Source: Candidatus Omnitrophota bacterium (lineage in GTDB: Bacteria; Omnitrophota; Gorgyraeia; B26-G9; JBDRCZ01). Taken from it: a stretch of DNA of 64,000 bases. The notes under the pieces were generated by a model. That model saw only the letters and a program-made list of their open reading frames with translations, did no database searches and was not told where the DNA came from. Below, in pieces: positions 32,821 through 59,960 of this stretch (position 1 is the first letter of the stretch; every line of letters starts with the position of its first letter). Where the stretch lies: contig JBDRCZ010000017.1 in the NCBI GenBank assembly GCA_043821285.1, positions 15,947 to 79,946 on the forward strand, written 5' to 3'. The position numbers and the translations under genes were made by a program.

Positions 32821-33140
32821 ATTACATATATGCTTTCATTCTCGTATTGAGTATCGCGTATTAATGTTTTAAATTCGAAATCCGAATATCTAAATGTTTA
32901 GAATTTGCCATTCGTCATTATAAGTGTTTTATTTTATCTATCTAGTTGATCCTGTCTAATTCGTTCTCGTATTGCGTTTTTTTATTGTCGTCTACTTGTT
33001 TTTATACTCAATACTCGATACACAATACACAATGCGTTGTTTAATCATTTCTCTCCGTGTTCTCTGCGGCTCTGTGTGATAAATTTTAGCTTTTATTTTC
33101 TGTCTTCTGAATTCTGATTTCTGTTTTCTGCTGTTAACTG

Positions 33141-36100
33141 TTAGATTGCTTGCTCTGCTATAAATATATTAGGTACTGTTATTTCTCCGGCACTTGGTAT
33201 ATCTTCAAGTAATGTGTCCGGTGCAAATACATTTTCATTAGCAGGATTGGCTCTTGTGGCTATATCTTTAGCGTTTATAACACGTTGTGAGCGTCTGTCC
33301 TTATGAGCACTAGTGTCATTCGTTTCCTTTTGTAATTTTGCAAGAAGAACCGGATTATCTTTTATTTCACGGTGATTTTTGACGTTGGGAAAAAAACCTG
33401 TTGTCAGTTTTCTTGCGGCGGTTAAATCATCAACAGTTTGAATAATCATTCCTAATTCACCATTTAAATCTTCGCTATGAACAACACCAGCTTCTAATCT
33501 TACCTGCATGCCTAATTCTGAAATCACTTCATTAACTTTGATTTCGATCGCTTTCAAAGTAGCGGCAATTTTTTCCGAAGTAATTATCCCATCATCTTCT
33601 CTATAAGCTCCTGCAAATTGATTATAAACATTGTTATTAATTGATAGAATTACATCATTTCCAACATTGTGGCCAAATACATCATTAATAACCTTAAATC
33701 CAAAATGCAATTGTGCAAATTGTGCATCTCCATTTAAGTCTGTTTCTCTGTAAAACTCTCTGTTGCCGCTTGCTCTTATGAAATCATTTATATTTATGGA
33801 TGTAGAACTAACTATATAATGTGCTGATAGTTTTATCAGTTGTACACGGTTATTTTCTCTTTTTATAACGAGGTAGAACTTATCAGGCCGTTCATGTACA
33901 ATACTGATTGAAACAGCAGATTTGCCGTCTAAAATGTTTTGAATGGTTTTGCCCAACTTATCTCTTTCTATTACCGGGTAAAACTTGTCTAAATCTTCTT
34001 TCGAAATACCCGCATCTATCATTTCCTGACGTATTCTTTCTCCTTCAACTCCTAATTGAAATTTTTTATCGTCAGCTATTTTAATCGGTGATTTTCTCTC
34101 TTCGCGCTCAGGATCTGGGCGTTCGGATAATCCTATTCCTACTAACTTGTTGGCATATTTAGTCCTGCGCTGGGTGTATTCCGCCTCATCTCTAGCAATT
34201 CTTAGTTGTTCCAATAGACTCATTTGGGAAATATTAGGTATATCACTTATTTTTACTGCTCCTACCGGGGCAAAGGGAACATAAACAGGAAAATAAATCT
34301 TACCATTAATATCAATGTCAAGACATTTAAGATTAGCGAGTATCTCGGATAGAACAGTGTTTTCATCCTCTTCTACATCTTTAGTGAACAGTATAAATGT
34401 TTCCTTAGAAGCCTTTTCTTCTTCTGGCGTTAAAAATACTGATTTTGTGACCGTAGTAATGTTTCTTTTTTTATTTTCTCTTAATTTTTCTATCAACGCA
34501 TCTCTGTTACTATCATTTATATTTTTTAGGATTGCAAAAACGTATTTTCCTTCAATCCGTTCTATGACCTTGCGTTGAATTTGTACGAGAAAGTGCTCAA
34601 TAACTTCTTTTGGCAACATAGGTGGTAACAAACCAACAACCTCATCACCACTAACATGATAAACTGTTCTACCTCTTTCTTCAATTTCTTTACGAGCTGC
34701 CTCAATTAATGTGTTAATTGCAAGTATATTCACATTTTCCCAGCCATATACATCATTTCTACCCCTTAGTTCGCTGATGTCAAAGAATATCACCCAAGCA
34801 TTGTCGTCGTGTCTACCTAAAAATACCACTGCTTCTTTTTCCCATTTTTGTGCATTTTCTGGATAGGCTTCATTAAGAAAGTTTCTTACGCGTGTTGTAT
34901 TATCAAATAAAGTGGTTAAATACATTATAAACTCTTGCAGTTCGTTATAGGGTTCGTCAGTATCTTTTCTACTTAAAAGAACATCTATCACCTTAGTAGC
35001 CGCGTCCCTAAATTGCTGATCATTAATATTTTGGTTAATAATTTTTCTCCACTTCTCACCTAAACGCTTTATTTCAGCCTTCAGAAACATTTCTATTGCT
35101 TCCTCATCTTCGCCTTGTTCTTTACACCTATCTACTTCTAATATTACTTTTTCTACATCTGCGCCCAACTCAAAAGCAAAAAATTCCCCATCTCGTTCCT
35201 GACTGGAATTTTCTCTTGGCAAAATGCTTGCCATACCTAAGCTAAATGCTGCGATTAAACCTGCGGTTCCTCCTCCCATCCCTGATTGAAGCATTGATGC
35301 TGCGGAAAATTCTGGTTGAGATGGGAAATAACCAAGTGCTCGCATTAATGTTCCAATAGATGCTGCTAAAAGCACGATGGATATTTTAGGTTTATTTCCA
35401 AACCATGCAACTAACCTCCTAATTAGCGTACCTAACCTGTTCTCATGGGAAGGACTTTTGTTTAATGCCCTCCAACCAGTTGGATGCATAAATGCTACAT
35501 TAGTTGCTTTGCGTCTACGATGAAGAAGTCCGCTTATATTTGCAGGAAATATTATTTTTCTGCTTATCCACTTTTTTACCTCATAAGCAATATATATTAA
35601 TGTTAAAATTATGCCCAAACCAGGTATTACCATACAATCGCTAATAAAATTATTCCACTGTTTAACACGAGCATAACCTTCTCTTACAGTAAAACTATCA
35701 ATAAAAAACTCTTCTCCCATCGGTGGCATGATACCAAACTTAGCAATAAAATCTGCCTGGTTTTTAAATGCTTCTGTTGTTTCTGGATTGATATCAAAAA
35801 AAGGAATAACTAATCGAGCAATGTTAAAAATCAACGTTACTGGGTTATGTTTTATAAGAAATTCCATTGGGTTTTTAGGCAAATTATCGACATGATGACT
35901 TAAACGCACTAATGTAACAGCGTATTCAAAAATTCCTCGCTTAGTAAAGAAATTTAATCCAATATTAGGATTACCCCATGTTCCATTCCATCTTGAACCA
36001 TAGACAATATCAAAATTGCTTTCACGGATAGGTGGATTATTTGTCATAAGAATTTGGTAAGTTTCGGGAGAAACTAATTTTATCAAAAATAGCGCTGGTC

Positions 36101-39100
36101 CAATATGTTCTGCTCCTTCAGTTCCATCTCTTCGCTCAATAAAATCGTCCAACATGCCCGCAGCTTTATATTCATTGTAAAGTTTAATTACGGCTGTATC
36201 GATTTCCTGAGCTCTTTTTCGTGCTGTTGATTCTATAAATGATCCCGTGTTTTCATCAATTTTTGATGCAAGTGGAGAGTTTTGAAATGTTTCAATTAGA
36301 TTATGGAATTCATTTAAAGCTATTTGTAATTCTCCATTATTTTCTTGTAATGATACAGGTTGTGGTAATTCATTAAGTTTTAAACTGTCAGCTGGTGTTG
36401 GCTGTACTAATCCACTTTTTCCAACTGGTTCTAAAGATACAATGTTTAATGGTGCAGCAATTCCGATTGGTGCTAATATGGTCTGTGATCCGATAGCGAG
36501 GATAGTGAGTAAAGGCAATACTACCTTACGTGCAAAAGAGAAGTTAACACTGTGTTTAAAACCCCAGCCAAAAATAGCTAATCCTATCAGTCCTATTGCC
36601 GCAATTACAGCACCTGGCAAACCAAAAAATAACCCTGCAAACCCAATTGCCATAATTAACCCATCGATTGAAAGTGCTGTGGTTCCATTAGGTAACCTAC
36701 GGCTGGAATTATTATCCGGCGCAGTAATCTCTACATTATCTCCATGATTAAACGTCTGTTCTAAGTCTTCTACGCTTCTGGGCAAGCCGTTAACTTTTAA
36801 CACCAACTCCCCAGACTGGAGCATTTTTTGTGTGGTTAGGATGGCTTTGCGATTACGATCATTATAATAAGAAATCTGTGAAGTAATAGTCTTAATAAAT
36901 AAATATGCCAGCAGATCATAGATATTTGTTGCGGGAATCTGTTCTGCTGATATCAGTTCTCTAATACCATCTTGTTGACTATTACTGGCTTCTTTAGTTA
37001 TTGTTAATTGGATTAATGCTTTTTGTTCTTCTTCTTGCAATTTTTGAGTTTGCTGAGTTATTTCATCCTCTAAAAGAGCTAATCCAGCCCTATGCTGCTC
37101 TAAGATATCTTTTTCAGGATCAAATTCCCCTTCAGCACAAATTATTAACCCATTTGGCATAATATAGTAGACTATATTGAGATAGCCATGTGTGCTTTTG
37201 CCGATCATCAGTGAGTTTTTATTATTTAGCCAACCTTCGTACCTTTCCTTATGAAGCATAATTTGTTGGCTATGTGTATAATATCTTAACGTTGCATTAA
37301 TAAAACCTTGCGCATCGGCTTCCTCTTCTTTACGATAAGTAAGTGTTGTTCCATGCCCAATGAAACCATTTTTATAATGTTCAGGTAAGTTCTTCCATTC
37401 TTTGTTCAAACCACTTTCAATCCTTTGATGCAGTGATTTGTTTCCAGGAGCCGGTATGACACGTTCTGGCTCTGATGCTAATATCTCAAAGCTCGTGAAG
37501 GCATAAAAAATATTTTCTCTATCTGTCGCAATACCCATGCGTGTTTGACCCAAATTATCAGTTACTACCTGCCAGGTTGTTAATCCTATTTCTCGAGTAT
37601 ATGCAATTAGCGCCAGTTCGTATATTTCTTCTGTTAATAGTCCATCATTTACCATCCGCACAAAAAGCTTAAGAAATTCGTTGCTGTGATATATAAACCC
37701 GACCAATATTACTAAAGAAATTTTTCTTAATCTTTCTGTTGCGTTCTCTTCCTTTTTGAGTTTACAATAGATTGCTTCTATTGCAGTAACACAATCACTT
37801 TTGTATTCTGAGCCTATTGGATCGTCTTCTAACAAGATATTCCCTAATATCTGAACCGCGTATTCTGTTCCAATATCACCTAAAAGGTTTTTAACAGCCC
37901 TTAGGCGTAAGTAAAGCGGGTTAGTTTTATCATTCAACGCATTTGTCACAAGTTTTTCTGCAGGTTCACCAATTCCTCTTATAATCTCCTCACCAAGCAA
38001 AAGTAAGTTGGTTAAGTTCATATTAATTATATATCTATTTGGTTGTTGAATTAATGTTCTCATTCGCTTAATACAAGATTCAATCACATGTGCTCCCAAT
38101 ATCTCTTTCCTGCCAATTTCAACTAAATAGTCCTTTAAAAGTTCTTTTCTTATGTTAGCAAGCTCATAAGCTGAATGAAAAAATAAAATTATTAAACTAT
38201 CAGTTATTTTATCAACCATTTGTTTAATAATATTGTTTTGGTTTTCTGCTCTGGGATTTATTTTTAATGCATTGGCAATTTCAGTTATAAACTGTCTATC
38301 TCTATCTGATAATTCATCCTGTTGAATTCTATTGTATAAGACGAATAAATATCTTATAAAATAATTGAGTACCTCAATAACAGTTCTAAGAAAATCTAGT
38401 TCAGTTTCGTTAAATACTTCTTTTTTTTCAAATTTTTCCTGTGTCATTTGCTCAAATATTTCTTTTATCAATATAACCACTCGTATTTCATTACGTTCTT
38501 TAAGTATGTTAATAAGTAAACGTCTTATCCTCAGGTCAGAAGATTGAAGCACGTATTCTCTTATGTGGGGAAATGCCCGCTCGACAATATTACCTAACAC
38601 CGAAGAGGCAATTGTAACACGTGTTCCGCGATATATTAATCCCTGTTCACTTAATTCTGTAACAGCAGATTGAAGATTATCTTCTGATTTTTTTGCAATC
38701 TCCGTCAAAATATCAATAATCACATCTTGTTTTTTTTCTCCATGATCAAGCAGGTGCCGGATAGCTTTTACGCCAAACCCTTTAACCAAAATATCTTTAA
38801 TATCAGATGTTATTTCACGATCTTCACTATGAGCTGATAAGGCATCTGTTAAAAGGTCCATTGCCGTTGCAATTGTATCTTCATCTCTATTAGCAAATTC
38901 ACCAAGTTCAGCCATATTATCAGTACGTGAAGCGCGATCTCTATACGTAGCTAACTTATTAATCACATCCTGTATGTAAGCTCTCGTTGTACTATTATAA
39001 CTATTTCTATTGCTAAAATGCTTTGTTGTATCTTCTCCCGGATTGCCCCAATCTTGTAAACTAGAAAAAGGTAACTTTAATCCACCTATTCCGGCAAATG

Positions 39101-39581
39101 TCAGTTTAGGGTTTATGCATTGCCAAAATAAATAAACTACCCCTGTTATCATTAACAATACATAAGGATTATTAAAATAACCATGAGGTATATTAGAAGA
39201 TAAGGAAATAATTATTTGCTTAAGTGGGTATAAGATTGTGCTTAGCGGTATTATATTGCTTATTACCAACACAGAAAATATTGCTAAAGCAGTTATACCG
39301 GCAATATAAGCTAATGTTCTGAATCTGTTTAAAAAGATTGGTGATTCTGTTGTAGGTTGTTTTGTTGTGATGGTAGCTGGGGCATGAGGTGTCATTTTTT
39401 CTCCTGAAATTATGAAAGCATGTTCCGTTACGGAATTAGCTATTTGCAATTCAGGGGCAAGGTGGGTGTGTAGACCTTTTAGATTGCCGCCGGCGGCCCA
39501 GGAAATGTCCAGGCATAAAAAGGCATTGATTAATATTATGGAAATTAGTCTAAAATAAATTTTACGTGTTAAATTATTCAT
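33141..39581 (-). CDS. giant-family protein G2 (2146 aa), multi-pass membrane, two GGDEF-like segments
   Basis: N-terminus MNNLTRKIYFRLISIILINAFLCLDISWAAGGNLKGLHTHLAPEL; C-terminus ...NIFIAEQAI. Several long hydrophobic stretches. Confidence 0.8.
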   Translation of the reverse strand: MNNLTRKIYFRLISIILINAFLCLDISWAAGGNLKGLHTHLAPELQIANSVTEHAFIISGEKMTPHAPATITTKQPTTESPIFLNRFRTLAYIAGITALAIFSVLVISNIIPLSTILYPLKQIIISLSSNIPHGYFNNPYVLLMITGVVYLFWQCINPKLTFAGIGGLKLPFSSLQDWGNPGEDTTKHFSNRNSYNSTTRAYIQDVINKLATYRDRASRTDNMAELGEFANRDEDTIATAMDLLTDALSAHSEDREITSDIKDILVKGFGVKAIRHLLDHGEKKQDVIIDILTEIAKKSEDNLQSAVTELSEQGLIYRGTRVTIASSVLGNIVERAFPHIREYVLQSSDLRIRRLLINILKERNEIRVVILIKEIFEQMTQEKFEKKEVFNETELDFLRTVIEVLNYFIRYLFVLYNRIQQDELSDRDRQFITEIANALKINPRAENQNNIIKQMVDKITDSLIILFFHSAYELANIRKELLKDYLVEIGRKEILGAHVIESCIKRMRTLIQQPNRYIINMNLTNLLLLGEEIIRGIGEPAEKLVTNALNDKTNPLYLRLRAVKNLLGDIGTEYAVQILGNILLEDDPIGSEYKSDCVTAIEAIYCKLKKEENATERLRKISLVILVGFIYHSNEFLKLFVRMVNDGLLTEEIYELALIAYTREIGLTTWQVVTDNLGQTRMGIATDRENIFYAFTSFEILASEPERVIPAPGNKSLHQRIESGLNKEWKNLPEHYKNGFIGHGTTLTYRKEEEADAQGFINATLRYYTHSQQIMLHKERYEGWLNNKNSLMIGKSTHGYLNIVYYIMPNGLIICAEGEFDPEKDILEQHRAGLALLEDEITQQTQKLQEEEQKALIQLTITKEASNSQQDGIRELISAEQIPATNIYDLLAYLFIKTITSQISYYNDRNRKAILTTQKMLQSGELVLKVNGLPRSVEDLEQTFNHGDNVEITAPDNNSSRRLPNGTTALSIDGLIMAIGFAGLFFGLPGAVIAAIGLIGLAIFGWGFKHSVNFSFARKVVLPLLTILAIGSQTILAPIGIAAPLNIVSLEPVGKSGLVQPTPADSLKLNELPQPVSLQENNGELQIALNEFHNLIETFQNSPLASKIDENTGSFIESTARKRAQEIDTAVIKLYNEYKAAGMLDDFIERRDGTEGAEHIGPALFLIKLVSPETYQILMTNNPPIRESNFDIVYGSRWNGTWGNPNIGLNFFTKRGIFEYAVTLVRLSHHVDNLPKNPMEFLIKHNPVTLIFNIARLVIPFFDINPETTEAFKNQADFIAKFGIMPPMGEEFFIDSFTVREGYARVKQWNNFISDCMVIPGLGIILTLIYIAYEVKKWISRKIIFPANISGLLHRRRKATNVAFMHPTGWRALNKSPSHENRLGTLIRRLVAWFGNKPKISIVLLAASIGTLMRALGYFPSQPEFSAASMLQSGMGGGTAGLIAAFSLGMASILPRENSSQERDGEFFAFELGADVEKVILEVDRCKEQGEDEEAIEMFLKAEIKRLGEKWRKIINQNINDQQFRDAATKVIDVLLSRKDTDEPYNELQEFIMYLTTLFDNTTRVRNFLNEAYPENAQKWEKEAVVFLGRHDDNAWVIFFDISELRGRNDVYGWENVNILAINTLIEAARKEIEERGRTVYHVSGDEVVGLLPPMLPKEVIEHFLVQIQRKVIERIEGKYVFAILKNINDSNRDALIEKLRENKKRNITTVTKSVFLTPEEEKASKETFILFTKDVEEDENTVLSEILANLKCLDIDINGKIYFPVYVPFAPVGAVKISDIPNISQMSLLEQLRIARDEAEYTQRRTKYANKLVGIGLSERPDPEREERKSPIKIADDKKFQLGVEGERIRQEMIDAGISKEDLDKFYPVIERDKLGKTIQNILDGKSAVSISIVHERPDKFYLVIKRENNRVQLIKLSAHYIVSSTSININDFIRASGNREFYRETDLNGDAQFAQLHFGFKVINDVFGHNVGNDVILSINNNVYNQFAGAYREDDGIITSEKIAATLKAIEIKVNEVISELGMQVRLEAGVVHSEDLNGELGMIIQTVDDLTAARKLTTGFFPNVKNHREIKDNPVLLAKLQKETNDTSAHKDRRSQRVINAKDIATRANPANENVFAPDTLLEDIPSAGEITVPNIFIAEQAI
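33400..33790 (-). other. GGDEF-like segment 2 of G2 (degenerate)
   Basis: LHFGFKVINDVFGHNVGNDVIL...AYREDDGIITS. The FKxINDxFGHxxGDxxL block is kept, but the signature is degenerate (EDDGI). Confidence 0.5.
34350..34830 (-). other. GGDEF-like (nucleotidyl-cyclase fold) segment 1 of G2
   Basis: VIFFDISELRGRNDVYGW...TVYHVSGDEVVGLLPP parallels DxDxFKxxNDxxGH...RxGGDEFxxxLP. The signature reads SGDEV. Confidence 0.55.
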
Positions 39582-40054
39582 AAGTTAATAGCCTATCAGT
39601 TAATTCCAAATGTTCCGCCTATCAAACCGGCGGACAGGCAAATAATAAAATCCAAATGACAAATGAATCATTTAATATCTCAATCTAAAAATCAAAATGA
39701 TATATTAAAATTCAAATATTTTTCTCTTTGACAGGATTTACAGGATTAACATGATTTTTTATCCAGTTAATCCTGTCTATTTTCTTATTTTCTCTGTGAA
39801 CTTTGTGTTCTCTGTGGTTATAAATTTTTTTATTTTTTTTAATCGTAATACTCAATACATGCTACTCAATACGCATTACTTTTTATAGTGTGCTCTCTGT
39901 GGTTAAAATATTTTTTGTTTTTTTATCTACATAATCATCCGTATTCTACGCTCTCTTTTATATGCACTATTTTCATTACAATCATACATATTGTAACCGC
40001 TAATAATTACAATCTGTTAAATATATTTATAACAATTTTAATATATACAAGTAA

Positions 40055-40082
40055 AGTATACCATATTTTTCTGATTTTTCAA
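40055..40082 (-). promoter_or_regulatory. sigma70-like promoter for G2(-G1)
   Basis: Minus strand reads TTGAAA, 16-nt spacer, TGG-TATACT (extended -10). Near-identical to 59561-59589. About 470 nt upstream of the G2 ATG. Confidence 0.6.
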
Positions 40083-40421
40083 GGATTTTGCTAAAAAAAT
40101 ATAGAAAATAACAGATTAAAAGATTCAGGTGATCACGGTTTTAAAACAGTATCAAGGCATTATTTATAACTTATTTATTTATAATATATTATAAAATAAT
40201 TATCGAATATGCCTACATGTTAATTATTCGTGAAATTCGTGTAATTTGTTGTTTAAAAATAAGCAGTTAAAGTTTTTCTTTGTGTGATAAATTTTATTTT
40301 TTACCGCAGAGAAAATCTAAAAGAAATCTCGTTCACAGATGTATGTAAGTTACATCCACTTTCTATTCTTAGTGCGTTACGTAAACGGTAAACTGCCTGC
40401 CTCCCGTTAGGGAGGTAAACT

Positions 40422-40446
40422 AAAAAATTGCCATAGGCAATTTTTT
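40422..40446 (-). terminator. terminator hairpin after G3
   Basis: Minus strand reads AAAAAATTGCC-TAT-GGCAATTTTTT then AGTTTACC. Overlaps the stop codon by 2 nt. Confidence 0.55.
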
Positions 40447-43400
40447 AAATTGCCCGTTCAATTTCAAACAAATCTGCTATCTCTCTCTTCTCCAGTTTTG
40501 TATCTGATCCATTTATGCCTACCCTATAGCCAGTGTGTCTTTCTTGGGGAGCAACTATTAGAGAATAAAGAGCGTGTAGTAACAGCATATCAGAATCAGA
40601 AATATGAGGGTCTATATTTTTTGCTTCTAATATTGATTCATCATCGCTTATTATTTCTTGTATAATTGTTTTTACTATATCTCTATCTTCAGCTCTGCAT
40701 TTTTCATGAATTGCATTCAGACATTGTTCAAAAAATGGTCTGAGCATCATAAGCTGAACATTATCTTCTTGTGTATATGCATTGGCAACTGCTTTTGTAA
40801 CTGTTTCTAAAACAGTTTGCCGGTAATCTGGTCTTACCGTATAGATATTATCAAAAAAGATAAAAGTCCCGGCTGCGGCTTGTGGCATTATTGTCTTGTT
40901 TAGTATCTCATTAATAACATTTCGAGGAAAATATACTAAAATACTTAATAATTTATCTATTGTAGTATTACTTGGGGTTAAACCTTGCTGCTGGATCAAC
41001 TCTTGATATTTTCTTCCTATGATTCTATGCATAGATTCAAGACTTCTTCTATTTGCATTTATCATTAAATTATTTCCTTTAACTGCTGTAACTAAGTCCG
41101 TTAATTCGCTTCGTATCATTTCTCGTTCTTTCTCAAATACATCCGTATCTTCGTTCCTCTGAGATATAAATAACCCTAAAAATTCAAGTTCTAATGCTTT
41201 TTTAAAGGCATCTTCCGAAGTAAATGCGTTTAATCTAACAGTAATATTTTCTAACAACATTAGCTCAAAGCTGGTACCTTGACGAAAAATATGTTTTAGA
41301 AATTTTTCTGCATTAGTAAATTCGGGTGAAAAGATGATTTCTCCACTGACACCATCTACTGTTTTCTCCATCACTTCATTTATCAAATTACCTACTGAAT
41401 CTAAGTTGTGAAACTCGTTTAATCTATTTTCATCTTGTATAACAGCTCTTAAATAAACCTCCATTCTTAAAAGGTAATCAGCCAAAAAAACACCATCAAT
41501 TGCAAAACGTATATTTTCATTCGTATCTTGAGTTCTTGCAGTCAAGGCTTGATAAAGAAAATCATCTATATCGGTCAACATTCTATAAAAGATTTCCATT
41601 GCTGTTTCCTTATCCTGTTTTAGAGCAAGTTCGAGGACATTATTAACATTTGAAAAATCTCGTGAAATATACTCCTTAATTACATCACATAACGCATTGA
41701 ACAGTGGTTTTTTATCACGACGGTAAATAGCAAAACTTAGCCTAATAAATGCTGCTAATATCTCATGGGAATTAAATCCTGAATTTATTAAATAACTTTG
41801 CTCCTTTTCTATATAGATTGGTATAATTTTAGAAACGTCATATCCCGCAATAACTGTGTAAGCAACTGCAGCAAAAATAAGATTATGTGTTTCTGCATCA
41901 TGTTTAGGAATGTTTATTCGTTGTAAGATTTCTCCTAATACTTCTCCTGCCTCAGTAGTTCTCTCCTCTTTTCCTTCAATCTGCGCTTTTATTTTATTAG
42001 TAAAAAATTCAAAAACAAAATCAGGTTCTGCCTTAAGATACGCTTCTATTGTTTCCCAATCTGCTGCTAATAAATTACGCAGTTTTTGGATTTTATCTTG
42101 AACCACGATTAAGTTATTTCGTAGATTGCTTATTTTTTTCTGATTTTTTCTCGTTTGTTTTTGCTCTTTGTTTATGGTTTGCTGAATAGTTCTTTCATTG
42201 CTTTGGCGACGATTAAGTGCCTGCGTCCTTGTAATAACTCCTTCTAAGAGGATTGTTACTTCAGAGAGTTTTTCTCTACGCGCTTTTACTGCCGGGGGCA
42301 TATCTAAAAGTAGAGGTTCCCTTGTTGTCACTGGAGCCTGCCATGCTGGAAGTTCTTCAGATGCTACTTGCATAGCAGCAGCGCCTTGAAGGACCTGAGG
42401 ATATAATGAATGTTTTTGCATTGGGTCTTCAACTAACATAAGCTCACAACTTTGAGGCGGTTTGAGAGCATTAATTCTATTTTGGATAACTACTCCCAAT
42501 CCCCAAGCCCATTCTGCTTGACTTTTATATAAATCAACTAAGGCTTCAATATCCTCACTTTCGTTTATAATTGCGGTTATTCTCTCTACCAGAGGAGCCC
42601 GGCTGTTTCTGTTAGGATAGGTATTAAGCATTTGATATAATTCAGGTATATTACTTAAATCATTATAACCGAGTAATCTTTTTCTCAGTACCTCTGCTAT
42701 TACCCCCCTTATTTGCTTACATCCGTAGGTATATTTATTTATAGAATTATCTGTAAGTAAACGAAGCAGGTTTTCGATATCTAAGGAAAACACTTGCCTG
42801 ATAATACCGAAAATAATATATATTTCTACTTCAGAGTGAATTTTTTTACTAAGTAAATTAGCTAATGCAGCAAGTGCCTCGCCCCCCCATTTACTAACCA
42901 TCTCCTGAGCAATAGCTTGAGCTTGTGTTTTGTCATTATTTTCTGCTTGCTGACGTTTAAATCTATCGGAAATTGCGGTTAATCGTTCAATGCCATCTTC
43001 AATCGAAGAAACAGTTAGGTGTATTTCTGATATTTTTCCTTGAGAAGCAATACTATTACTTAATTGTGCGGCTGCTGCTTGCTTTGTTTTCTGGGGTAAC
43101 CTTGGATTTCGTGACCACTCTGAAAGCAAGCGATCATTTACTTCTGCTAATCTTTTTGCAGTGCTTAACGCCTTAATTCTATACCAAAGATAATTATTCC
43201 AGTATTCATCGTCCCATTCTTGGCTTAGATACACATCAACTAAGGCAACAATATCTTGATTATTTTTTATTATATGTTTCATCCTTCTTCTTGCCAGATC
43301 TTTAATGTCTTCGTTCGGACATAATGTTTCATTATTAATAACATAATATAATGCAGAAATACTTGTTACGTTTCGAGGAATGCTAACAGTTTTTATGATA

Positions 43401-46400
43401 ATTATGCTTTTAATCATACCTCTGGTAACTTCAGCTCCTTTAGTTTCTTGCTGATTCATCGCAGTATATAAATAAAATATTTCTGTAACAGACATTGAGT
43501 TAAGACAATTACCAAGTGCCGACATAGTTATTTCTATTGCTTCTTCATTAAGAAGATTCGTATCAATTTGCTCAGCAAATTGTTTAATAATTTCTAAAAA
43601 CTCATCTTTATCCTTTGTGTTATACATTTCTGTTATAATATTTTTAACTTCTTGAGGAGCGGATGCAATAAAGGCTTGTATTTCTTCGGGTGTCTGATAA
43701 TAATCAGCCAACTCTTTCTCCAGCTTTTCTATTTGTGACGCAATTGTCGTATCTAGTTCTGGTTTATTAATTCGCAGCCACTCTATTATTCTTTTTCTTA
43801 CTGTCCGATCTTGGATGCCAATCAATAATCCTAGTACATGCACTACCTCGTTTTCTAAACACATGTATTGTGACAAGATGTCGTTAAGTTCCGTATTCGC
43901 TGCATTGCTAAAGAATAGGTATATAGTACCAGCAATATGTTTTTGTATGCCCGTAAGTCTAAGGATTTTTTCACTCAAAATATTTCTTATGCTCGAACCC
44001 CAGCTTCTTTCTAAATATAATTCTACTGCTGTCTTTAAATTATCACATTCATTAACCAGTTCTCTTATTCTCATCCTTAGCAGTGCCCGGGTTCCTTCAT
44101 GGTACTCTCTATCATTGAGCAAATCTTGCAGTGGTTCGATACTAGCAATGCCTTGATATTCAGCAAGGCGCTGTTTGATCGCTTCTATTAATTGACTACT
44201 ATTGTCCCCATGATTTAACCTACGCAATAGTTCCTCTAAGGTGAGAGTTTTTATGGGGTCAAAATCTGCTAGTAGTTCTGCAAAAGTTACTTGATTATCA
44301 GAAGGCGCTGCAACTTCTCTTGTCGGGGGGGCATCCCTGTTGGTGTCGGCTCTTTGATTAGCGTTTCGCCATGCTGCTCTTAAGGCACGTGTATCTGACT
44401 GTGATGGTGGCTCTGGAAAATGTACCACCTGAGCTGCATTCGACGGAGCTGTTGTTCGTACAAACCTATCTGGAGGGGATAGTGATAGATCGAAAGCAGC
44501 TGCTAGTTTTTCTAATGAGTTTAGAGTCAAAGGGTTATTGTTTCCTGATGGAGGAACTGTATCTTTTGGTAAAGCAACTTCTGCTGTGTCAGTCCCTTCC
44601 TTTTCTGGTTGTCGCAAGTCACCTGATTGTAATGGTACGGTGTATGCTTGAGGGTTATTTTCTTTTTCCCTTTCCCTTTTCCTTTTCTTTCTTGCAATAG
44701 GAGGACTATCTGCTCTATATTGTTTACGTGCTTTCCTTTTCATTAATACAACTTTATCTTCTTCTTCATCATCATCATATTGGTCACTATCATCTATTGC
44801 ATTTATTAACTCCTCTATTATGAGCATTAAAGCAATCCGTATATTTTCTTCTGATAATTCACCCGAACCCTCTTGCATCAATTGCTCAATTTCTTCCTCT
44901 GACAAAGTTAAATCGTTTATAACACCAATGAGCTGTTCAATGATTTGACCATTCTCGTGTGCGCTTTCAATTATATTATCTATAGCATCTTTTAACGCTT
45001 CATGATATGTATCTTCATCAAGTAGTAAATAAGTTTTTACTAAAAAACTAAGATCTATTTCTAAAGCACTATTTCTCGTTGATCTTACGCCGGTACTACC
45101 AAGCAAGCATAGTAAACTAAATCCCCAAGCCAACCCCTTCCAAATAAAAAATGCCAGTGCATCTGGTCTTGCGGCAACAAAGTGTACTACTGGATATAAT
45201 AATCCTTCATGTCGTGCAAGAGAATTTATGATTGTAAATTCGATGTAGTCGATAATAATGAGCATAGCTGATTTAGCACCAGTAACCGCCTTTTTAACTA
45301 ATTCCCAAACATTTGGTATAAATTGTATCTGCGGTTGTATATATAAAGGAAAGGTCATTATTAAGGAAAGACCTAATATAGCGTGTATTGGTAAATGCCC
45401 TAAGTTTACACTAACCGGGATGCCCGTGATATTACTGATTACCTCTAATATAAAAGGTGCAATCAATAATAAAAAGAGGCCATTTATTAATGGATGGGAA
45501 TTCAGGGTAACACTCTTACCAGCATTACTTTCTTGATAAAATTCTCTTACCGCTCTATTTGTTTTTATTAAAGCACGTAAATCAATAATGATATTTCCAT
45601 TTCTATCTTTACGAAGGTCATGTTTATTTTCCTTGTCAGATAAAAATATCTTATCATCTTCTTTCACAATTTTATATTCCACGTTACCAATCCAAATAAT
45701 ATCATTTTCCCTGAAAGTTACTTCTTTCCTTAAAATATCAATGATTAATTCCTTGCTGTTTGCTTCGTTACGCAGAAGAATAGTATTACCAGCTATTGCA
45801 TATTTTGTATTATCTATCATTCTGTCTTGATGCCACCATGCTATTCTGAGTTTGTAACCATCACCCTTTCCCTCAGTTTTTATTTTTTTTAGACCATCTG
45901 TTGGGAAAAATTCTAACCGTTCTCGTAAACGCTGGATTTTAGTATTGTATTGTCTTATATCTAAAATTCGCTTGTTATGAATGTTCTGAATTACAGCTAA
46001 TAACTCGTTGTCCTTAATACTTGCTAATAATGCGCCATAAAAGGCCAGACCTAAGCTATCTACTCTTAAAACTATTCTTTCTATTTCTGTGTGTTTGTTT
46101 TTGTTAAATAGAGTTGTTAAATAATTAGCCAATATCAGTACAAATTCCCCGCCCCACCACTTTATAACCTCAACCAATTGACCAAGAGACTGCGGTGTAA
46201 TATTTTGATGTTCATTCAGGAGATTTTCAATAATTTGTAATACTGCAGAAACTGAATATACACCAAATTGTTCGGCCAAAGCTTTGATTATTGCCAATCT
46301 TTGCGTTTCATCAAAATTATTAAGATTAGCTTCTTTTTCTTTCATCATCTTAATATAATTTTCGGCTGAATCCCAATCTTGAGTAGACTTATTAGTATCC

Positions 46401-47536
46401 CAATACTGTACTGGTTTGCGATACACTGCTTTTGCTGCTACTAATATATTTTTTTCTTTCTCTGTAAGTGCGGTGTCATCATTTGTCCATATCCTAATCA
46501 TTCCGTGTCTTGGTGCTGTTATATAAAATGAAATTTTTGACGCAAGAAACTCTTCCCATTCTTCTGGAGAAGGCACAGTTGATAAATCAGCACGTAAACG
46601 TATAAAACGGTTATAGTTTTTATTTTCGTTATTAATTATGTCTGCCGGAAGCAGCCGCCGGCCAACATGAATTTCTATATTAGAGTTTTCTGGTATTGGT
46701 TGGGTATAACGGCTTCGATCAGGGGTTGAAACATTCCAGTAGTTTTGTGTTGATATACCAAATCTCAAAGATTCGTTATCTATTTTTATGCTCTCGGGAG
46801 CAAAAAACATCATCATAATTGCATGCGCAGGTAAACGTATTGCATCAATCCAGTAGTGAATTCCTTTACGATAACTATACTCAAGGATAATTTTAATACC
46901 ACGTTCAAACAGAACTTTTAATCCGGGTAAAAAGGCAATATTATTAAATACGCTGTTGGTATTTAATCTAAAGACTTCCATATCCCTGGGGACAGTAAGC
47001 ACTATTCGCGGAGACGCACCTTTAATATCTATTTTTCCATAAGTAGTAATTTCACTTTGCAAATCACGCGCCAACCCAAGCAAACTTAGAAAGTCAATTT
47101 CTTTTAGAACCGGGGGTATTCTTTCAACCGTCTCATCATCTGGACAAGGTATTTCTGGAATTTCCCTAATATTTAATTGATTGTTTTTTTTAGAAATTAC
47201 ATAAGAACGTTGTTTACCAGCTGCGCCTGTTGTTACAAACAATACTATCGAACCATCATTCGCAAATCTTTTCTCGCATGCATCAAACTCAAACTTATCT
47301 TTAATATAACTTACGCCAACATGTCCTTCTGCCCAAGTATATGCATCACTTATTTTTTTGTAAAGCATAATATTTTCTGCAAATAGAGGGTCATTTACTT
47401 CCAAAGGCGGGGCAAGATGGGTATGTAGACCTTTTAGATTGCCGCCGGCGGCCCATGAGATGTCTAAGCATAGAAAGGCATTGATTAATATTATGGAAAT
47501 TAGTCTAAAACAAATTGTACGTGTTAAATTATTCAT
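40445..47536 (-). CDS. giant-family protein G3 (2363 aa), function unknown
   Basis: N-terminus MNNLTRTICFRLISIILINAFLCLDISWAAGGNLKGLHTHLAPPL; C-terminus ...DLFEIERAI. Contains a TM cluster and an acidic then basic/Pro-rich low-complexity segment. The C-terminal ~500 aa are paralogous to G6. Confidence 0.8.
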   Translation of the reverse strand: MNNLTRTICFRLISIILINAFLCLDISWAAGGNLKGLHTHLAPPLEVNDPLFAENIMLYKKISDAYTWAEGHVGVSYIKDKFEFDACEKRFANDGSIVLFVTTGAAGKQRSYVISKKNNQLNIREIPEIPCPDDETVERIPPVLKEIDFLSLLGLARDLQSEITTYGKIDIKGASPRIVLTVPRDMEVFRLNTNSVFNNIAFLPGLKVLFERGIKIILEYSYRKGIHYWIDAIRLPAHAIMMMFFAPESIKIDNESLRFGISTQNYWNVSTPDRSRYTQPIPENSNIEIHVGRRLLPADIINNENKNYNRFIRLRADLSTVPSPEEWEEFLASKISFYITAPRHGMIRIWTNDDTALTEKEKNILVAAKAVYRKPVQYWDTNKSTQDWDSAENYIKMMKEKEANLNNFDETQRLAIIKALAEQFGVYSVSAVLQIIENLLNEHQNITPQSLGQLVEVIKWWGGEFVLILANYLTTLFNKNKHTEIERIVLRVDSLGLAFYGALLASIKDNELLAVIQNIHNKRILDIRQYNTKIQRLRERLEFFPTDGLKKIKTEGKGDGYKLRIAWWHQDRMIDNTKYAIAGNTILLRNEANSKELIIDILRKEVTFRENDIIWIGNVEYKIVKEDDKIFLSDKENKHDLRKDRNGNIIIDLRALIKTNRAVREFYQESNAGKSVTLNSHPLINGLFLLLIAPFILEVISNITGIPVSVNLGHLPIHAILGLSLIMTFPLYIQPQIQFIPNVWELVKKAVTGAKSAMLIIIDYIEFTIINSLARHEGLLYPVVHFVAARPDALAFFIWKGLAWGFSLLCLLGSTGVRSTRNSALEIDLSFLVKTYLLLDEDTYHEALKDAIDNIIESAHENGQIIEQLIGVINDLTLSEEEIEQLMQEGSGELSEENIRIALMLIIEELINAIDDSDQYDDDEEEDKVVLMKRKARKQYRADSPPIARKKRKREREKENNPQAYTVPLQSGDLRQPEKEGTDTAEVALPKDTVPPSGNNNPLTLNSLEKLAAAFDLSLSPPDRFVRTTAPSNAAQVVHFPEPPSQSDTRALRAAWRNANQRADTNRDAPPTREVAAPSDNQVTFAELLADFDPIKTLTLEELLRRLNHGDNSSQLIEAIKQRLAEYQGIASIEPLQDLLNDREYHEGTRALLRMRIRELVNECDNLKTAVELYLERSWGSSIRNILSEKILRLTGIQKHIAGTIYLFFSNAANTELNDILSQYMCLENEVVHVLGLLIGIQDRTVRKRIIEWLRINKPELDTTIASQIEKLEKELADYYQTPEEIQAFIASAPQEVKNIITEMYNTKDKDEFLEIIKQFAEQIDTNLLNEEAIEITMSALGNCLNSMSVTEIFYLYTAMNQQETKGAEVTRGMIKSIIIIKTVSIPRNVTSISALYYVINNETLCPNEDIKDLARRRMKHIIKNNQDIVALVDVYLSQEWDDEYWNNYLWYRIKALSTAKRLAEVNDRLLSEWSRNPRLPQKTKQAAAAQLSNSIASQGKISEIHLTVSSIEDGIERLTAISDRFKRQQAENNDKTQAQAIAQEMVSKWGGEALAALANLLSKKIHSEVEIYIIFGIIRQVFSLDIENLLRLLTDNSINKYTYGCKQIRGVIAEVLRKRLLGYNDLSNIPELYQMLNTYPNRNSRAPLVERITAIINESEDIEALVDLYKSQAEWAWGLGVVIQNRINALKPPQSCELMLVEDPMQKHSLYPQVLQGAAAMQVASEELPAWQAPVTTREPLLLDMPPAVKARREKLSEVTILLEGVITRTQALNRRQSNERTIQQTINKEQKQTRKNQKKISNLRNNLIVVQDKIQKLRNLLAADWETIEAYLKAEPDFVFEFFTNKIKAQIEGKEERTTEAGEVLGEILQRINIPKHDAETHNLIFAAVAYTVIAGYDVSKIIPIYIEKEQSYLINSGFNSHEILAAFIRLSFAIYRRDKKPLFNALCDVIKEYISRDFSNVNNVLELALKQDKETAMEIFYRMLTDIDDFLYQALTARTQDTNENIRFAIDGVFLADYLLRMEVYLRAVIQDENRLNEFHNLDSVGNLINEVMEKTVDGVSGEIIFSPEFTNAEKFLKHIFRQGTSFELMLLENITVRLNAFTSEDAFKKALELEFLGLFISQRNEDTDVFEKEREMIRSELTDLVTAVKGNNLMINANRRSLESMHRIIGRKYQELIQQQGLTPSNTTIDKLLSILVYFPRNVINEILNKTIMPQAAAGTFIFFDNIYTVRPDYRQTVLETVTKAVANAYTQEDNVQLMMLRPFFEQCLNAIHEKCRAEDRDIVKTIIQEIISDDESILEAKNIDPHISDSDMLLLHALYSLIVAPQERHTGYRVGINGSDTKLEKREIADLFEIERAI

Positions 47537-47854
47537 ATGTTAATACCCTGTTAGTTAATTCCAAATGTTCTAATTCAAGATTTAAAAATTCCAAGATTCC
47601 AGATTCTAAAATTATAAAATTCCCCGCTACAAGGTCGAAGATCCGCCATCGTATTAGTGAAGAACGCTGGCGAACAGGCAAATTCTCTAACCTTCGGCAA
47701 GTAAAACGTTTTGAATCGTTAAATCTTAAAATATTCAAATTTTGGAATTGTTTGTTTTATTCTTCTGTCTTCTATTCTCTACCTTCTGTTTTCTGCTTTC
47801 AATCAGCTGTATCAGTAAACGGTAAACTGCCTGCCTTCCATTAGGGAGGTAAAC

Positions 47855-47879
47855 TAAAAAATTGCCGCAGCAATTTTTT
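47855..47879 (-). terminator. terminator hairpin after G4
   Basis: Minus strand reads AAAAAATTGC-TGCG-GCAATTTTTT then AGTTTACC. Confidence 0.55.
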
Positions 47880-50800
47880 AGATTGCTTGTTCTACTGCCA
47901 ACATTTCATTCCACTCTAACTCTGTAAGTGCAGGGGGTTGTTTAGGCATTGTTGTCAATTGTCCTGGGTTATTATCATGAGGATCCAGTCTTTGCTGCTC
48001 TACAATCTTTATTGCTGCTTCAATAATCGCTGCAGTGTCCATCTTATGTGCACGGTATAATATCTCGTGACTTCTTGCGGATTGTCCCCAACCTTGGATT
48101 CCTAACGAAGTTACAGTTGAACCAGTTGTAAGCAGAGATGAAGTTACTACCTTACTTACTGCTCCGCTTAATATTTTTGGAGAAGCGTCTTGAACAGTAA
48201 TTATTGGCACTCCCCGTTCAAGAAGAGGTGGTAAAGCTTCATCGATTAAATCCAATCTGGTCAAATTTATTACTTTTGCGGTAATATCTTGACTTTCCAA
48301 TTGTTCGCTCGCGGCAATTGCAAATTCCACCATTGCTCCGGCAGCAATAATAATAATATCGCTATTTTGTCCGTTTTCTCTTGGATCTTTAATTACATAA
48401 GCACCTTGTTCTGGACTGGGATTTTCTCCTCTATTTAAAACTGGAACATTTTGACGGGTAAGCTGAAGATAAGAAGGTCCTTTACCATCTAATGCCCTGT
48501 GCATAGCAAAATCTACTGCTTCTTCAGCCTCACGGGCATCTGCAGGTATAAAACCAGTCATTTTTTGCAAAAAAGAAATATAGCGAATAACGCCAGCAAC
48601 GATTACTGACTGATGAGTAGAACCGTCTGGCCCAACGCCTAAGCCGGCATGACTTAACGCAACAATTACCGGTAGTTTTGCCCGGGCAATCACAATTATT
48701 TGACTAATCATTCGGTTAGCAAAACAATCAAAGGTTGCGATAACTGGTATCTTACCATATAATGCTAATCCAGCAGCAATTCCTGCCATTGCTTGTTCTC
48801 TTACTCCGGATGGAACGTATCTTCCATTGGTGTTATGACGAGAAAAAATGCCAAAGTCCCTAGCAAACCAATTCAGTCTTGTAGAACTGGCAATGTCCGC
48901 GCAGAAAGCAATAATCTTTTCGACGCGTTTTCCCCAGTCAAGCATCCTGTTACCAAAACCATCACGTGTAGCAAAATTCCTATTTGCTTGGTATCTAATT
49001 TCTGCCGGTGTTTGTAGCATTGTCATTTGAACCGGCTCTGGCTCTTGTGTTTGTTTAATGTTGCTATAAATAAGCAGATTGAATTCCCCAATCTTATAAG
49101 GAACCATTCCATTCAATGCTTCCATAATTGTTGTGGCCATGATGTGTTCATCAAAACCCCGGGTAATAATTAAAACAGGTTTTCCTGTATTATCCTTGTT
49201 TAGCTGTTCAAAGGTTTGACCTAAGATTTCAGCCTGTTCTTGATTATTATTAGCATTGAGCTCAATCACTCTCCAACCATAAGCTTGCCAAATATTAACT
49301 AATTCCGTGTTTGTCTCTGAAGCTTGAAGGACTAAGCAGAGATTATCTATGCCATTGTGTGCGGCGAATCTAGCTGTTTCTGCAAACTGACCTTCTCTTT
49401 CTTCTTTTTCCGTGGCTAAAGCAATAACTCTGCCAGATGCTGTATCCATTTTAGCTCCAAAAGCTATACCTGCGGCCAGAGAAAGACGCATACCCGCAGG
49501 GAATATTTCTTGAGGACTAAAATCTATTTTCATAAGCCCGTCCGTGGGTTTTTCTTTTCCATCAACTAATTCTTTTGCTACTTCTATTATATTTTCAATA
49601 TCCTTGTCACTCATGGACCAAACAACGGAACCTGCGGTTTTAGAAGATGAAGTTACAGTCCTGCTTACCGCATCACCTAAACATACTGGCAATCCATCAT
49701 AAATTGTAAGAATACGGCTTCCTGGCTCAATATACTCTAAGAGCTCACTTCCTGCACCTAATGAGTCTAATTGCGTAACATTTATGATCTTAGTCATCGT
49801 ACCTTGTGATTCTAACTCATTACTGACTTTTATGGTTTGATGAAGACTTTTACCTGAAGAAATAAGAATAACCCTCTTTTTTGCCGTGTCCCACCCTTCA
49901 GATTGACTTATAACATAGGCACCTTGCTCTGGCTGGGGATTTTCTCCTCTATCTATAACCGGAAGATCTGCAGAACTTAAACGAATATAAGAAGCAGTGT
50001 ACTCATCTGGGATATTAAGTGATGTAGGGGCTTTATTTGTTATTTTAGCCAATAATAATGCATTTTTTATTGCCATATCAGTCAACTCATTAGTTTCATT
50101 AGGATCCCCTGGTTCTAACGCAATTACATTATGCATCAGGTCCATAACTCCTGGGGTAAAACTTAACTCTTCAGATTCAGCCGCTAAAATAAACGGTACC
50201 CTTGCCTGAGCATTTATCCTTAATTGGTCTAACATTTTCATCGCATCATTTTCCGGCAGAAAGACAATCGGCAGCATACCCGAATAACCAAACCCAGCAG
50301 CAAAACTGGCTAAGTGCTGTTCTCTATCCTCAACTAAGAAACATCGCTCGATGAGTTTATTTCTTATATCTTCATCAGTAATCTGTGCAATAAATTCATC
50401 AATAAATCTTTGTTTAGAATCGGAATTATTAAAAATAAATACTATCCGTTCATCTTTTTCTGCCCACTGGAGTAGTCTATTTTTAAATGCAACAGATGGA
50501 GAGACTTCCTCATCCTGTGCATAGTTGGTTCTATCTGGTATTGTTGTCGTGTCTGTTTTTTGTAGAGTACTCTCTTTTGATAAATTGTTTTCTTCTTGTT
50601 CTGTCATTTGGTTATCTGAAATAAATCTATCTACATCTGTTGAAAATCCATAAAAATTCATTTGTTGACTAATATTTTCAATTGTGTTTTCTATTTGGGG
50701 GATAGCTTCAGATAGTTCTTTATCATTTAATGCTCTACCGTGAAACGCGGTTGGATCATCTTCCATAAAATCTACGCCTTTACCTTTTTTTGTCTTGGCA

Positions 50801-53553: not shown

Positions 53554-53751
53554 GATTTGTAGATATGTTTATCCATTCCAGATTTTAAAATTCCCCGCCA
53601 TAATGCGTTGACAGGCAGATTCAAAATTTAAATATTTTCTTTGAAACAAGTGTCACATGATTAATCTGATTTTTTATCCTTCTTTATCCTATTAATCCTG
53701 TCTATTTTTTCTGCTTTTTTGTCTTCCAAATTCTGACTTCTGTTTTCTATC

Positions 53752-55287: not shown

Positions 55288-55312
55288 AAAAATTGCCGAT
55301 GGCAATTTTTTT
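55288..55312 (-). terminator. terminator hairpin after G5
   Basis: Minus strand reads AAAAAAATTGCC-ATC-GGCAATTTTT then AGTTTACCGTTTAC. Confidence 0.55.
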
Positions 55313-59036: not shown

Positions 59037-59560
59037 AATAAATATCTCCAGTTATTTAATTTTAAATGTCCCGCCTATCAAACCGGCGACAGGCAAATGA
59101 ATCATTAAATAATTCAATCTTTAAAATTTATTTATGTAATTTGTGTGATTTGTTGTTAATAAAATAAGTACTTGAAATCTTTCTTTGTGTGCTCCGTGTC
59201 TCTGTGTGACAAATCTAATATTTTTGTTTCGCTTGTCCGCCGTGCTCTGTTTGGCGGGTCATTCTGGTTTCGTTATTCGTTATTAAATTATCCTGTCTAT
59301 CATCCACAATGATTGGCGGATCTTCAATTTTTTATATTTTCTCTGTGAACTTTGCGAGCTCTGTGGTGATAAATTTTTTATTTTTTTTTACCGCGATACT
59401 CAATACTCATTGCTTTTTATAGTGTGCGCTCTGTGATGATAATTTTTGTTTTGTTTTTTTAGCCACAATGCTCAATACACAATACCCGATACTTAATCAT
59501 ATTACTTTTCATAATGCCTTGTTATAAATAAATTTATAACATCTTTTAAATAGTTTTATA

Positions 59561-59935: not shown

Positions 59936-59960
59936 AAAAAGTTGCCATAGGCAACTTTTT
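59936..59960 (-). terminator. terminator hairpin after G6
   Basis: Minus strand reads AAAAAGTTGCC-TAT-GGCAACTTTTT then GTTAACCGTTTACTGTTTACC. Confidence 0.55.

Follow-up and report, generated by a model that had tools for sequence, protein, structure and literature searches.

A tandem array of large genes with a shared leader cassette

We analysed a stretch of 64,000 nt (hereafter the window) from a Candidatus Omnitrophota bacterium (contig JBDRCZ010000017.1 of assembly GCA_043821285.1), in which five complete large genes, named here G1 to G5, form a tandem array on the minus strand together with a sixth gene that has its 5′ end beyond the window. The array consists of G1 (29833-32820, 995 aa), G2 (33141-39581, 2146 aa; NCBI ABH952_01580), G3 (40445-47536, 2363 aa; NCBI ABH952_01585), G4 (47878-53553, 1891 aa), G5 (55311-59036, 1241 aa) and the sixth gene (59959 to beyond 64000). 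All five complete genes begin with a common leader peptide, and two of them, G2 and G3, head their otherwise unrelated coding sequences with a nearly identical nucleotide cassette that runs from the ribosome-binding region into the leader codons. We consider short-tract gene conversion between nearby direct repeats to be the best explanation of this cassette, with a probability of about 0.7 judged from sequence comparison. The locus lies on an 86-kb contig among housekeeping neighbours such as dnaE, guaA and hisS-like genes, and the window averages ∼36% G+C.

The cassette occupies positions 39454-39615 in G2 and 47409-47570 in G3, both on the minus strand, and corresponds to -34 to +128 relative to the ATG, that is, 34 nt with an AGG/GGAG-type ribosome-binding site followed by leader codons 1-43 (MNNLTRKIYFRLISIILINAFLCLDISWAAGGNLKGLHTHLAP). 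Over this interval the best local alignment of the two genes is ungapped, with 149 of 162 positions identical (92%), and the 13 differing positions leave a longest exact run of 37 nt. The first-pass annotation had described a region of ∼170 nt that is ∼90% alike in the two genes, and our counts agree closely: 152 of 169 positions are identical (89.9%; 39447-39615 versus 47402-47570, minus strand), 30 of the 34 bases upstream of the ATG match, and the first 128 coding bases differ at 9 positions, where 9-10 had been claimed in the early coding region. In a repeat search the G2/G3 pair (family D1) stood at 89% identity over 175 nt, versus 63-66% for the three other copies.

The borders of the cassette are sharp. 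The similarity had been said to end abruptly after the codons for THLAP, and it stops at codon 43. In 30-nt windows the two genes agree at 25-30 of 30 positions between -30 and +119 and at only 3-13 of 30 outside, giving a box-shaped profile without slope, and within ∼30 nt on either side of the tract identity drops to 10-43%, the level of random sequence.

With nhmmer, a nucleotide profile built from the cassette picks up five copies in the 64 kb and no more (E 1e-46 to 1e-55), each heading a complete array gene and all in the same orientation. Besides those of G2 and G3, these are the minus-strand copies in G1 (32683-32863, E=1.6e-48, also seen by alignment), G4 (53405-53591, E=2.3e-46) and G5 (58888-59076, E=7.2e-47). 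No orphan or silent cassette was found with this profile within the window. A weak leader-like segment inside G4 (53201-53248, aa ∼100-117, LSLDAIILINALIAAW) reached E=1.1. A reading of the copies as an antigenic or phase-variation cassette system was rejected, given only five copies that all head complete genes in one orientation, and inverted repeats in the window that are terminators, an insertion sequence (IS) and a small operator-like palindrome.

Selection on the peptide alone does not account for the nucleotide identity

Selection on the leader peptide alone cannot explain the identity of the G2 and G3 cassettes. At the 39 degenerate positions where the two genes encode the same residue, the same codon is used 32 times, against 15.3 expected from the codon usage of the window, and none of 200,000 simulations reached 32. 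By the same test seven other pairs lie at expectation (P 0.08-0.56), with mild elevations for G1-G2 (P 0.006), G1-G3 (P 0.044) and G4-G5 (P 0.019). Nei-Gojobori estimates for G2/G3 are dS 0.32 and dN 0.02, with 8 silent and 2 replacement differences, and in every other pair dS runs from 0.77 to saturation. That peptide selection by itself does not yield nucleotide identity is also seen in another array, L005, where six genes have this kind of leader peptide and yet no nucleotide similarity to one another could be detected. The pattern that the first-pass annotation had named as contrary to exchange, gradual decay of identity combined with saturated synonymous sites, is therefore absent: the change is abrupt at both ends and dS is 0.32.

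These values bear directly on the possibility that the two leaders are merely what plain purifying selection has preserved from an old whole-gene duplication, the bodies having diverged beyond recognition, or, as a variant, that they are an assembly artefact of a metagenome bin. The leader peptide is indeed strongly conserved across its family, and the window does come from a metagenome-assembled genome (MAG). However, unrecognisable bodies would imply saturated silent sites and a saturated untranslated region (UTR) in the leader, and neither is saturated, so that the silent-site test refutes the old duplication. A collapsed or chimeric assembly would not make the two copies, since they differ at 13 positions and share no exact run longer than 37 nt. 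We accordingly regard the explanation, in either form, as highly improbable.

A different proposal is that the bases themselves are under selection, in that the cassette would be a regulatory DNA or RNA element (e.g. an operator, a recombinase site or a structure that controls translation). This element would include a palindrome that had been reported in both copies: GCCGCCGGCGGC is exact at 39486-39497 in G2 and at 47441-47452 in G3, occurs nowhere else in the window, and encodes A-A-G-G as GCC GCC GGC GGC at the predicted signal-peptidase site. The palindrome is built of minority codons, GCC making up 18% of Ala and GGC 19% of Gly codons in the window, and given the residues AAGG this codon choice has a probability of 1.25e-3 from codon usage. 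Two further points speak for the proposal. GCC before and/or after the conserved Trp (GCC-TGG-GCC-GG), again the minority Ala codon, recurs in the leaders of the window and of three other loci, L002, L003 and L004, and a shorter tract shared by G1 (see below) starts exactly at the TGG that directly precedes the palindrome.

However, in G4 and G5 this part of the peptide is encoded by other codons, without the palindrome (GCG GCA AAT AGT in G4 and GCT GCT AAT GGT in G5, next to GCC GCC GGC AAC in G1, all as the first reading of the sequence had it). The absence of nucleotide similarity among the L005 leaders counts against base-level selection as well, and 8 silent to 2 replacement changes between G2 and G3 is the signature of selection on the peptide. 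Folding gives no help to the proposal either, since the folding energy of the cassette mRNA from -69 to +135 does not beat that of dinucleotide-shuffled controls (z=+1.1 and +2.2), and a search of the window against Rfam returned only a tRNA, with no match in the cassette; a structured cis-regulatory RNA was rejected on these same grounds. Nucleotide-level constraint on the cassette is thus largely refuted, and we hold it to be very improbable.

The palindrome itself has a simpler origin. GGC and GCC are reverse complements, so (GCC)2(GGC)2 is necessarily a 12-nt palindrome, and its presence in G2 and G3, along with 9 of its 12 bases in G1, follows from the tract being shared by descent. It is a by-product of coding that needs no function of its own, and as a functional site it was rejected, being absent from G4 and G5 and an automatic result of GCC/GGC codons. 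The use of GCC around the conserved Trp may reflect a codon-context preference or shared descent. As a separate observation, the hexamer CGCCGG is in three-fold excess across the window (23 occurrences versus 7.7 ± 2.7 in shuffles) and occurs outside the array as well.

Mosaic flanks and a second tract

The flanks of the cassette in G2 have a different affinity from the cassette itself. Immediately upstream, a block of G2 from -35 to -111 (39616-39692, minus strand), which includes ATTTGCCTGTCCGCCGGTTTGATAGGCGG, is homologous to the upstream region of G5 (59072-59127) and not to G3, where the sequence at -111 to -35 is unrelated to G2 in local alignments. Immediately downstream, all 5 informative sites of G2 from +129 to +150 (39432-39453, minus strand; codons E-L-Q-I-A-N-S) side with G5 and none with G3, while inside the tract G2 equals G3 at 37 of 43 informative sites (Fisher P=2.7e-4, inside versus outside). 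Past +128, G3 keeps resembling G1 (PPL.xN..FA..I). The result is a phylogenetic incongruence in which both flanks of G2 are G5-like, on few informative sites. Since the G2 flanks are G5-like and G3 stays G1-like, the arrangement suggests that the leader of G3 is native and that a G5-type 5′ end of G2 was overwritten. A column-permutation test of the GENECONV type, which the first-pass annotation had proposed as a check, gives P=0.0019 for G2-G3.

A second and shorter tract is found in the 3′ half of the G1 leader (+73 to +120 of G1, codons WAAGNNLKGLHTHLAP; 32701-32748, minus strand), which is 90% identical to G2 and 88% to G3, while the 5′ half of that leader is only 65-67% identical to either. 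In the comparison with G2 alone, identity is 90% in +82 to +129 and 67% in +10 to +81, where G1 is slightly closer to G4 and G5 (71-72%). The permutation test for G1 returns P=0.0004 with G2 and P=0.009 with G3. The alignments would make this a second exchange with a breakpoint of its own.

Similar tracts recur outside this genome. On the metagenome contig SDBU01001426.1 (L004), two adjacent genes with unrelated bodies are identical at 167 of 178 positions from -17 to +161, with a dS of 0.10, and three further genes there are 78-86% identical over ∼120-235 nt around their starts. The tract of the adjacent pair (94% identical; 4318-4500 and 6627-6810) spans the last 6 codons of one gene, which encode the tail LVEQAI, the ATGA in which its stop overlaps the next start, and 53 codons of the gene that follows. 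Because this tract crosses the gene boundary, tail and leader behave in L004 as one junction module.

Conserved 3′ cassettes and spacers

The array genes are alike at their 3′ ends as well, a match that the first-pass annotation had not picked up. Each of the six ends in a C-terminal motif of the form ..[IV]E[QR]AI-stop (minus strand; 29833-29850, 33141-33158, 40445-40462, 47878-47895, 55311-55328 and 59959-59976), with the tails IEQAI, AEQAI, IERAI, VEQAI, VEQAI and IEQAI; G2 thus ends in ..IAEQAI and G3 in ..EIERAI. In G3 the last ∼25 coding nt (..FEIERAI and stop) are part of a 3′ cassette (40381-40470, minus strand) that continues into two hairpins, a terminator A6UUGCC-UAU-GGCAAU6 and CCUCCC-loop-GGGAGG. 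Its partner in G4 (47815-47903, minus strand) combines the ..AVEQAI tail and stop with terminator hairpins, and the two are 87% identical over 90 nt (repeat families D3 and D10). Since the 3′ hairpins are terminator-like, with fold z down to -4.6, the array genes look like separate transcription units between 5′ and 3′ cassettes.

The hairpin of the form A6-TTGCC-loop-GGCAA-T6 stands directly past the stop codon in four genes (40422-40470, 47855-47903, 55288-55336 and 59936-59984); G2 lacks it, and G1 has a different hairpin. Because the 3′ arm, GGCAATTT, repeats the last codons (G-GCA-ATT-T), the 5′ arm of the terminator could pair with either copy. Between the genes, the spacers are mosaics of short blocks that are combined differently from spacer to spacer. 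One of them contains an operator-like inverted repeat, GACAGGATTTACAGGATTAA / TTTATCCAGTTAATCCTGTC, at 39730-39777, 150-195 nt upstream of G2, and its core TTAATCCTGTC is also found upstream of G4 (53680-53708) and G1 (32934-32962; families D13 and D14). The shared core hints at a common regulator for G1, G2 and G4. No promoter was assigned, since a sigma-70 scan of the window did not rise above shuffles (45 sites versus 36.7 ± 6.0).

The matching 3′ ends bring in the most serious competitor to gene conversion, duplication of a whole junction module or, put differently, gene birth or fission. Here the unit of tail, terminator, UTR and leader at the G4-G3 junction would have been copied once and placed 7-8 kb downstream, where its insertion split or capped a body so that G2 received the leader of G3, and the middle of the new junction was later scrambled by indels and by the activity of ISs or repeats. 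This would account for the agreement of the G4-G3 and G3-G2 junctions at both ends (92% over 162 nt and 87% over 90 nt), it has a precedent in the L004 tract that carries tail and leader across a gene boundary as a unit, and mobile elements lie inside and beside the array.

However, the middle of the G3-G2 junction, the block from -111 to -35 and the stretch from +129 to +150 of G2 are G5-like rather than G3- or G4-like, and for that reason a patch overwritten within an existing G5-type 5′ end fits better than a fresh insertion. In addition, G1 has a separate partial tract with a different breakpoint, and the leader profile described below matches N-termini only. A second, internal leader stretch was seen in a single protein (P0028) of the 70 that the profile finds, from which it follows that fused junctions inside longer genes are rare. 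We therefore judge module duplication to be unlikely, with gene conversion of the G2 5′ end remaining our preferred explanation.

A leader and tail on unrelated proteins

The leader has the anatomy of an export signal. Its n-region, MNNLTRK, carries two basic residues, a hydrophobic core of ∼15 residues follows (FRLISIILINAFLCL, Kyte-Doolittle peak 2.05-2.23), and in the c-region, D-I-S-W-A|A, small residues occupy -3 and -1 by inspection. A basic n-region, an h-region of 10-15 residues, a polar c-region and small residues at -3 and -1, the features of a Sec signal peptide, are all recognised by inspection, from which we infer a Sec-type signal peptide or signal anchor that would be exported and cleaved. 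After the leader core, near the mature N-terminus, stands a further conserved motif, GGNLKGLHTHLAPPL.

Two other classes were rejected on inspection of the leaders of the 70 family members described below. A lipobox ([LVI][ASTVI][GAS]C) does not fit, as the sole Cys is in A-F-L-C with Leu at -1, and distant members have L, I or V in place of the Cys. A double-glycine (C39 peptidase) leader does not fit either, as G4 has WAANS and G5 WAANG, and the distance from Asp to GG varies by subfamily (DISWAAGG versus DIAWAGG). Searches of the leader against Pfam (even at E≤10), NCBIfam and PDB sequences returned no match except a meaningless weak one to Mre11_2nd.

The leader defines a large family. We searched 1.84 billion cluster representatives exhaustively with a 50-position leader profile, which matched 70 proteins at E≤1e-3, 23 of them also at E≤1e-10, always at residues 1-50. 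The D-x-[SA]-W-A core is retained across the 70 representatives, which range from 67 to 6278 aa and have unrelated bodies, many with other enzyme-type domains. When 30 of the representatives were looked up, 23 belonged to the same Omnitrophota MAG as the window, on many contigs, which with G1 and G4 makes at least 25 members in this genome. Others came from Logan, ENA and JGI assemblies, from the NCBI metagenome contig SDBU01000162.1 and from another Omnitrophota MAG (L001). A homologous-protein search with the leader alone found one protein. Pattern scans of genome and metagenome contigs with the five window leaders gave no match, and those with a broader alignment of 20 leaders found L001 to L004.

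The tail accompanies the leader. Among the leader-bearing proteins, 45 of 70 finish with [AS][IV]; the consensus of the tail is L-x-[LF]-[VI]-E-[QR]-A-I-COOH, and the exceptions are mostly short, probably fragments. A sorting tag, a PDZ ligand and an unfoldase tag are candidates for the role of the tail. Leader and tail also go together in three other arrays, L003, L004 and L005, in each of which 5-7 co-oriented tandem genes have both the leader and a ..QAI tail. In the locus L006 (553-5125 and 8751-14686), small PilZ genes stand on both sides of a gene for a 1243-aa protein with leader and tail, and a gene for a leader-bearing protein of 4848 aa lies nearby; this arrangement appears to link the leader family to the PilZ-associated giant-gene loci of Omnitrophota. 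No shared dedicated machinery was recognised beside the arrays: the window and L003, L004, L005 and L006 have no neighbour gene in common, apart from the PilZ genes of L006. The window has its own PilZ domain, fused to a T2SS/T4P-type ATPase (PilB/GspE-like) at 11321-12718, ∼17 kb from the array.

The first-pass annotation treated the array genes as diverged paralogues; we find instead that the gene bodies are unrelated multi-domain proteins. Between the proteins of G2 and G3 there is no BLASTP similarity outside residues 1-47, the best other match having E=0.15. The body of G2 has ∼7 further hydrophobic segments and a weak GGDEF-like stretch, G3 has no Pfam domain, G4 contains transketolase domains (Pfam and NCBIfam), and Pfam places a SAM methyltransferase plus PRTase-like and HAD-like portions in G5. 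The proposed analogy with surface-protein families that keep a constant leader on a variable protein holds for the leader, which heads at least 25 proteins, and fails for the rest, as the bodies are unrelated and are not variants of one surface protein. The leader would thus be one address label on unrelated multi-domain cargo (e.g. transketolase, methyltransferase and GGDEF-like domains), kept constant in all members by what appears to be purifying selection, and not the constant part of a set of antigenic variants.

Several features of the gene bodies and of their surroundings stand apart from the cassettes. The transketolase of G4 is complete (N, Pyr and C domains), scoring 479 bits with NCBIfam, slightly below the equivalog cutoff of 488, and the protein around it carries the leader and has several hydrophobic segments. 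Within the same gene, nucleotide repeats (48392-48449 / 49910-49967 and 49444-49494 / 51094-51144) suggest a partial internal duplication. The sole body similarity within the array is a 589-aa module at 36% identity (E=7e-99) that is common to G3 (aa 1734-2296; 40649-42337) and the sixth gene (61273-63030), which we read as domain shuffling between members. Between G5 and G4 lies an IS (53752-55232) with 23-nt terminal inverted repeats that are 96% complementary and a DDE_5 transposase gene (53922-54986) on the strand opposite to the array. An IS200-like Y1 (tyrosine) transposase gene is found at 27148-27954, ∼2 kb past G1, the last array gene, and could be related to the hairpin-rich repeats of the spacers.

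Discussion

The sharp borders, the unsaturated silent sites, the conserved UTR, the permutation P value and the G5-like flanks of G2 together support the gene conversion or cassette exchange of 5′ modules that had been proposed for this locus. In mechanistic terms, direct repeats would exist in the array because strong purifying selection maintains leader peptide and tail throughout a large family, and one non-reciprocal homologous-recombination event of ∼160 nt between copies ∼8 kb apart, a short-tract gene conversion, would have carried the cassette from G3, the suggested donor, to G2, the suggested recipient. The process would probably be of the RecA type. Since the event, the two copies would have diverged mainly at silent sites. 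Such exchanges would be recurrent, given the G1 tract and the likewise paired 3′ cassettes of G3 and G4, and recurrent exchange could keep the leaders of one genome alike while supplying the portable homology by which new cargo bodies are joined to the same address label.

Several points weigh against this account. Because the alignable region is only ∼210 nt, few sites bear on the flanks: five informative ones 3′ of the tract and, 5′ of it, a single block of 77 nt. The direction of transfer is no more than a suggestion. A divergence of ∼8-10% indicates that the event is not recent, and the true donor could be outside the window, in a paralogue on another contig of the MAG. The G4-G3 and G3-G2 junctions are alike at both ends, a pattern that the copying of an entire junction module with a rearranged middle could also produce, and conversion cannot be told apart from it with full certainty. 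Finally, several of the bodies look like cytoplasmic enzymes, which would be awkward for a simple secretion of the leader proteins.

The by-product of this analysis is of more interest than the mechanism: a leader/tail signature that marks a large set of proteins in Omnitrophota. The signature (leader ..F[KR]L..IILI[NQ]AFL.LD[IV][SA]WA.. then ..L[AS]P.[ILV].I, tail L-x-[LF]-[VI]-E-[QR]-A-I-COOH) appears to be undescribed. As a tentative idea, which we think more doubtful than probable, it could act in some Omnitrophota as a two-ended sorting or handling signal. Dozens of large proteins with enzyme domains would then make up a dedicated addressed proteome, whose destination may be the cell surface, a host cell or a prey cell, and the junction from tail and stop to start and leader would serve as a recombinogenic module that recruits, splits or joins cargo genes. 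If true, such a junction would contribute to the evolution of the giant genes of the phylum. The evidence of gene conversion, for its part, points to a route for cargo recruitment, in which unrelated bodies are joined to one export label and the leaders are kept matched to the machinery of their genome. The predictions are that the leader is cleaved after S-W-A and that the tail is recognised by some partner. In practice, leader and tail together provide a search key for proteins with a common address, which recovers 70 clusters from public data and no fewer than 25 proteins from this genome.

Comparison with known systems

Omnitrophota are uncultivated, host-dependent nanobacteria, and the signature bears on how they export huge multi-enzyme proteins and on the use of these proteins. 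For the giant genes of the phylum, PilZ genes have been reported downstream (West-Roberts et al. 2023, bioRxiv 10.1101/2023.11.21.568195), and long Omnitrophota proteins have been assigned to a multi-enzyme class with a signal peptide and/or transmembrane (TM) segments (bioRxiv 10.64898/2026.06.07.730766). The array proteins share with them the phylum and the combination of a signal peptide or TM segment with many unrelated enzyme domains, and the PilZ neighbours find their likeness in L006. They differ in size, the giant proteins having at least 10,000 aa versus 995-2363 aa in the window, although relatives with the leader reach 4848 and 6278 aa. Text searches of three Omnitrophota papers, these two included, found no mention of a shared conserved leader, a fixed C-terminal tail or leader homogenisation in tandem arrays.

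Two well-known kinds of system resemble the array in part. The mycobacterial PE/PPE proteins and the variable lipoproteins of Mycoplasma combine a conserved N-terminal module with a variable rest and undergo documented gene conversion between paralogues, in a setting of antigenic variation among related variants. In contrast, the bodies here are unrelated, and the window has no silent or orphan cassettes. Polymorphic toxins such as Rhs and CdiA have a long constant N-terminal trafficking part, a small, exchangeable C-terminal toxin with an adjacent immunity gene, and recombination at the border between the parts. In the array, both termini are constant, and neither immunity-like partners nor orphan tips were seen.

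The closest analogue is the erp/OspEF-related family of Borrelia burgdorferi with its upstream homology box (UHB), in which a constant 5′ flank and leader precede unrelated bodies and the members are mosaics. The erp genes encode small surface proteins with lipoprotein (lipobox) leaders and reside on cp32 prophage plasmids. The array described here, by comparison, has no lipobox, is chromosomal and tandem, and encodes proteins of 1-2.4 kaa (elsewhere up to 6.3 kaa) with enzyme-type domains. Its proteins share a conserved C-terminal hexapeptide, whereas the erp proteins have no conserved C-terminus, and in place of one common box its upstream regions combine shared blocks as mosaics. With these differences, the array provides a bacterial parallel to Borrelia erp that does not come from a pathogen and involves far larger proteins.

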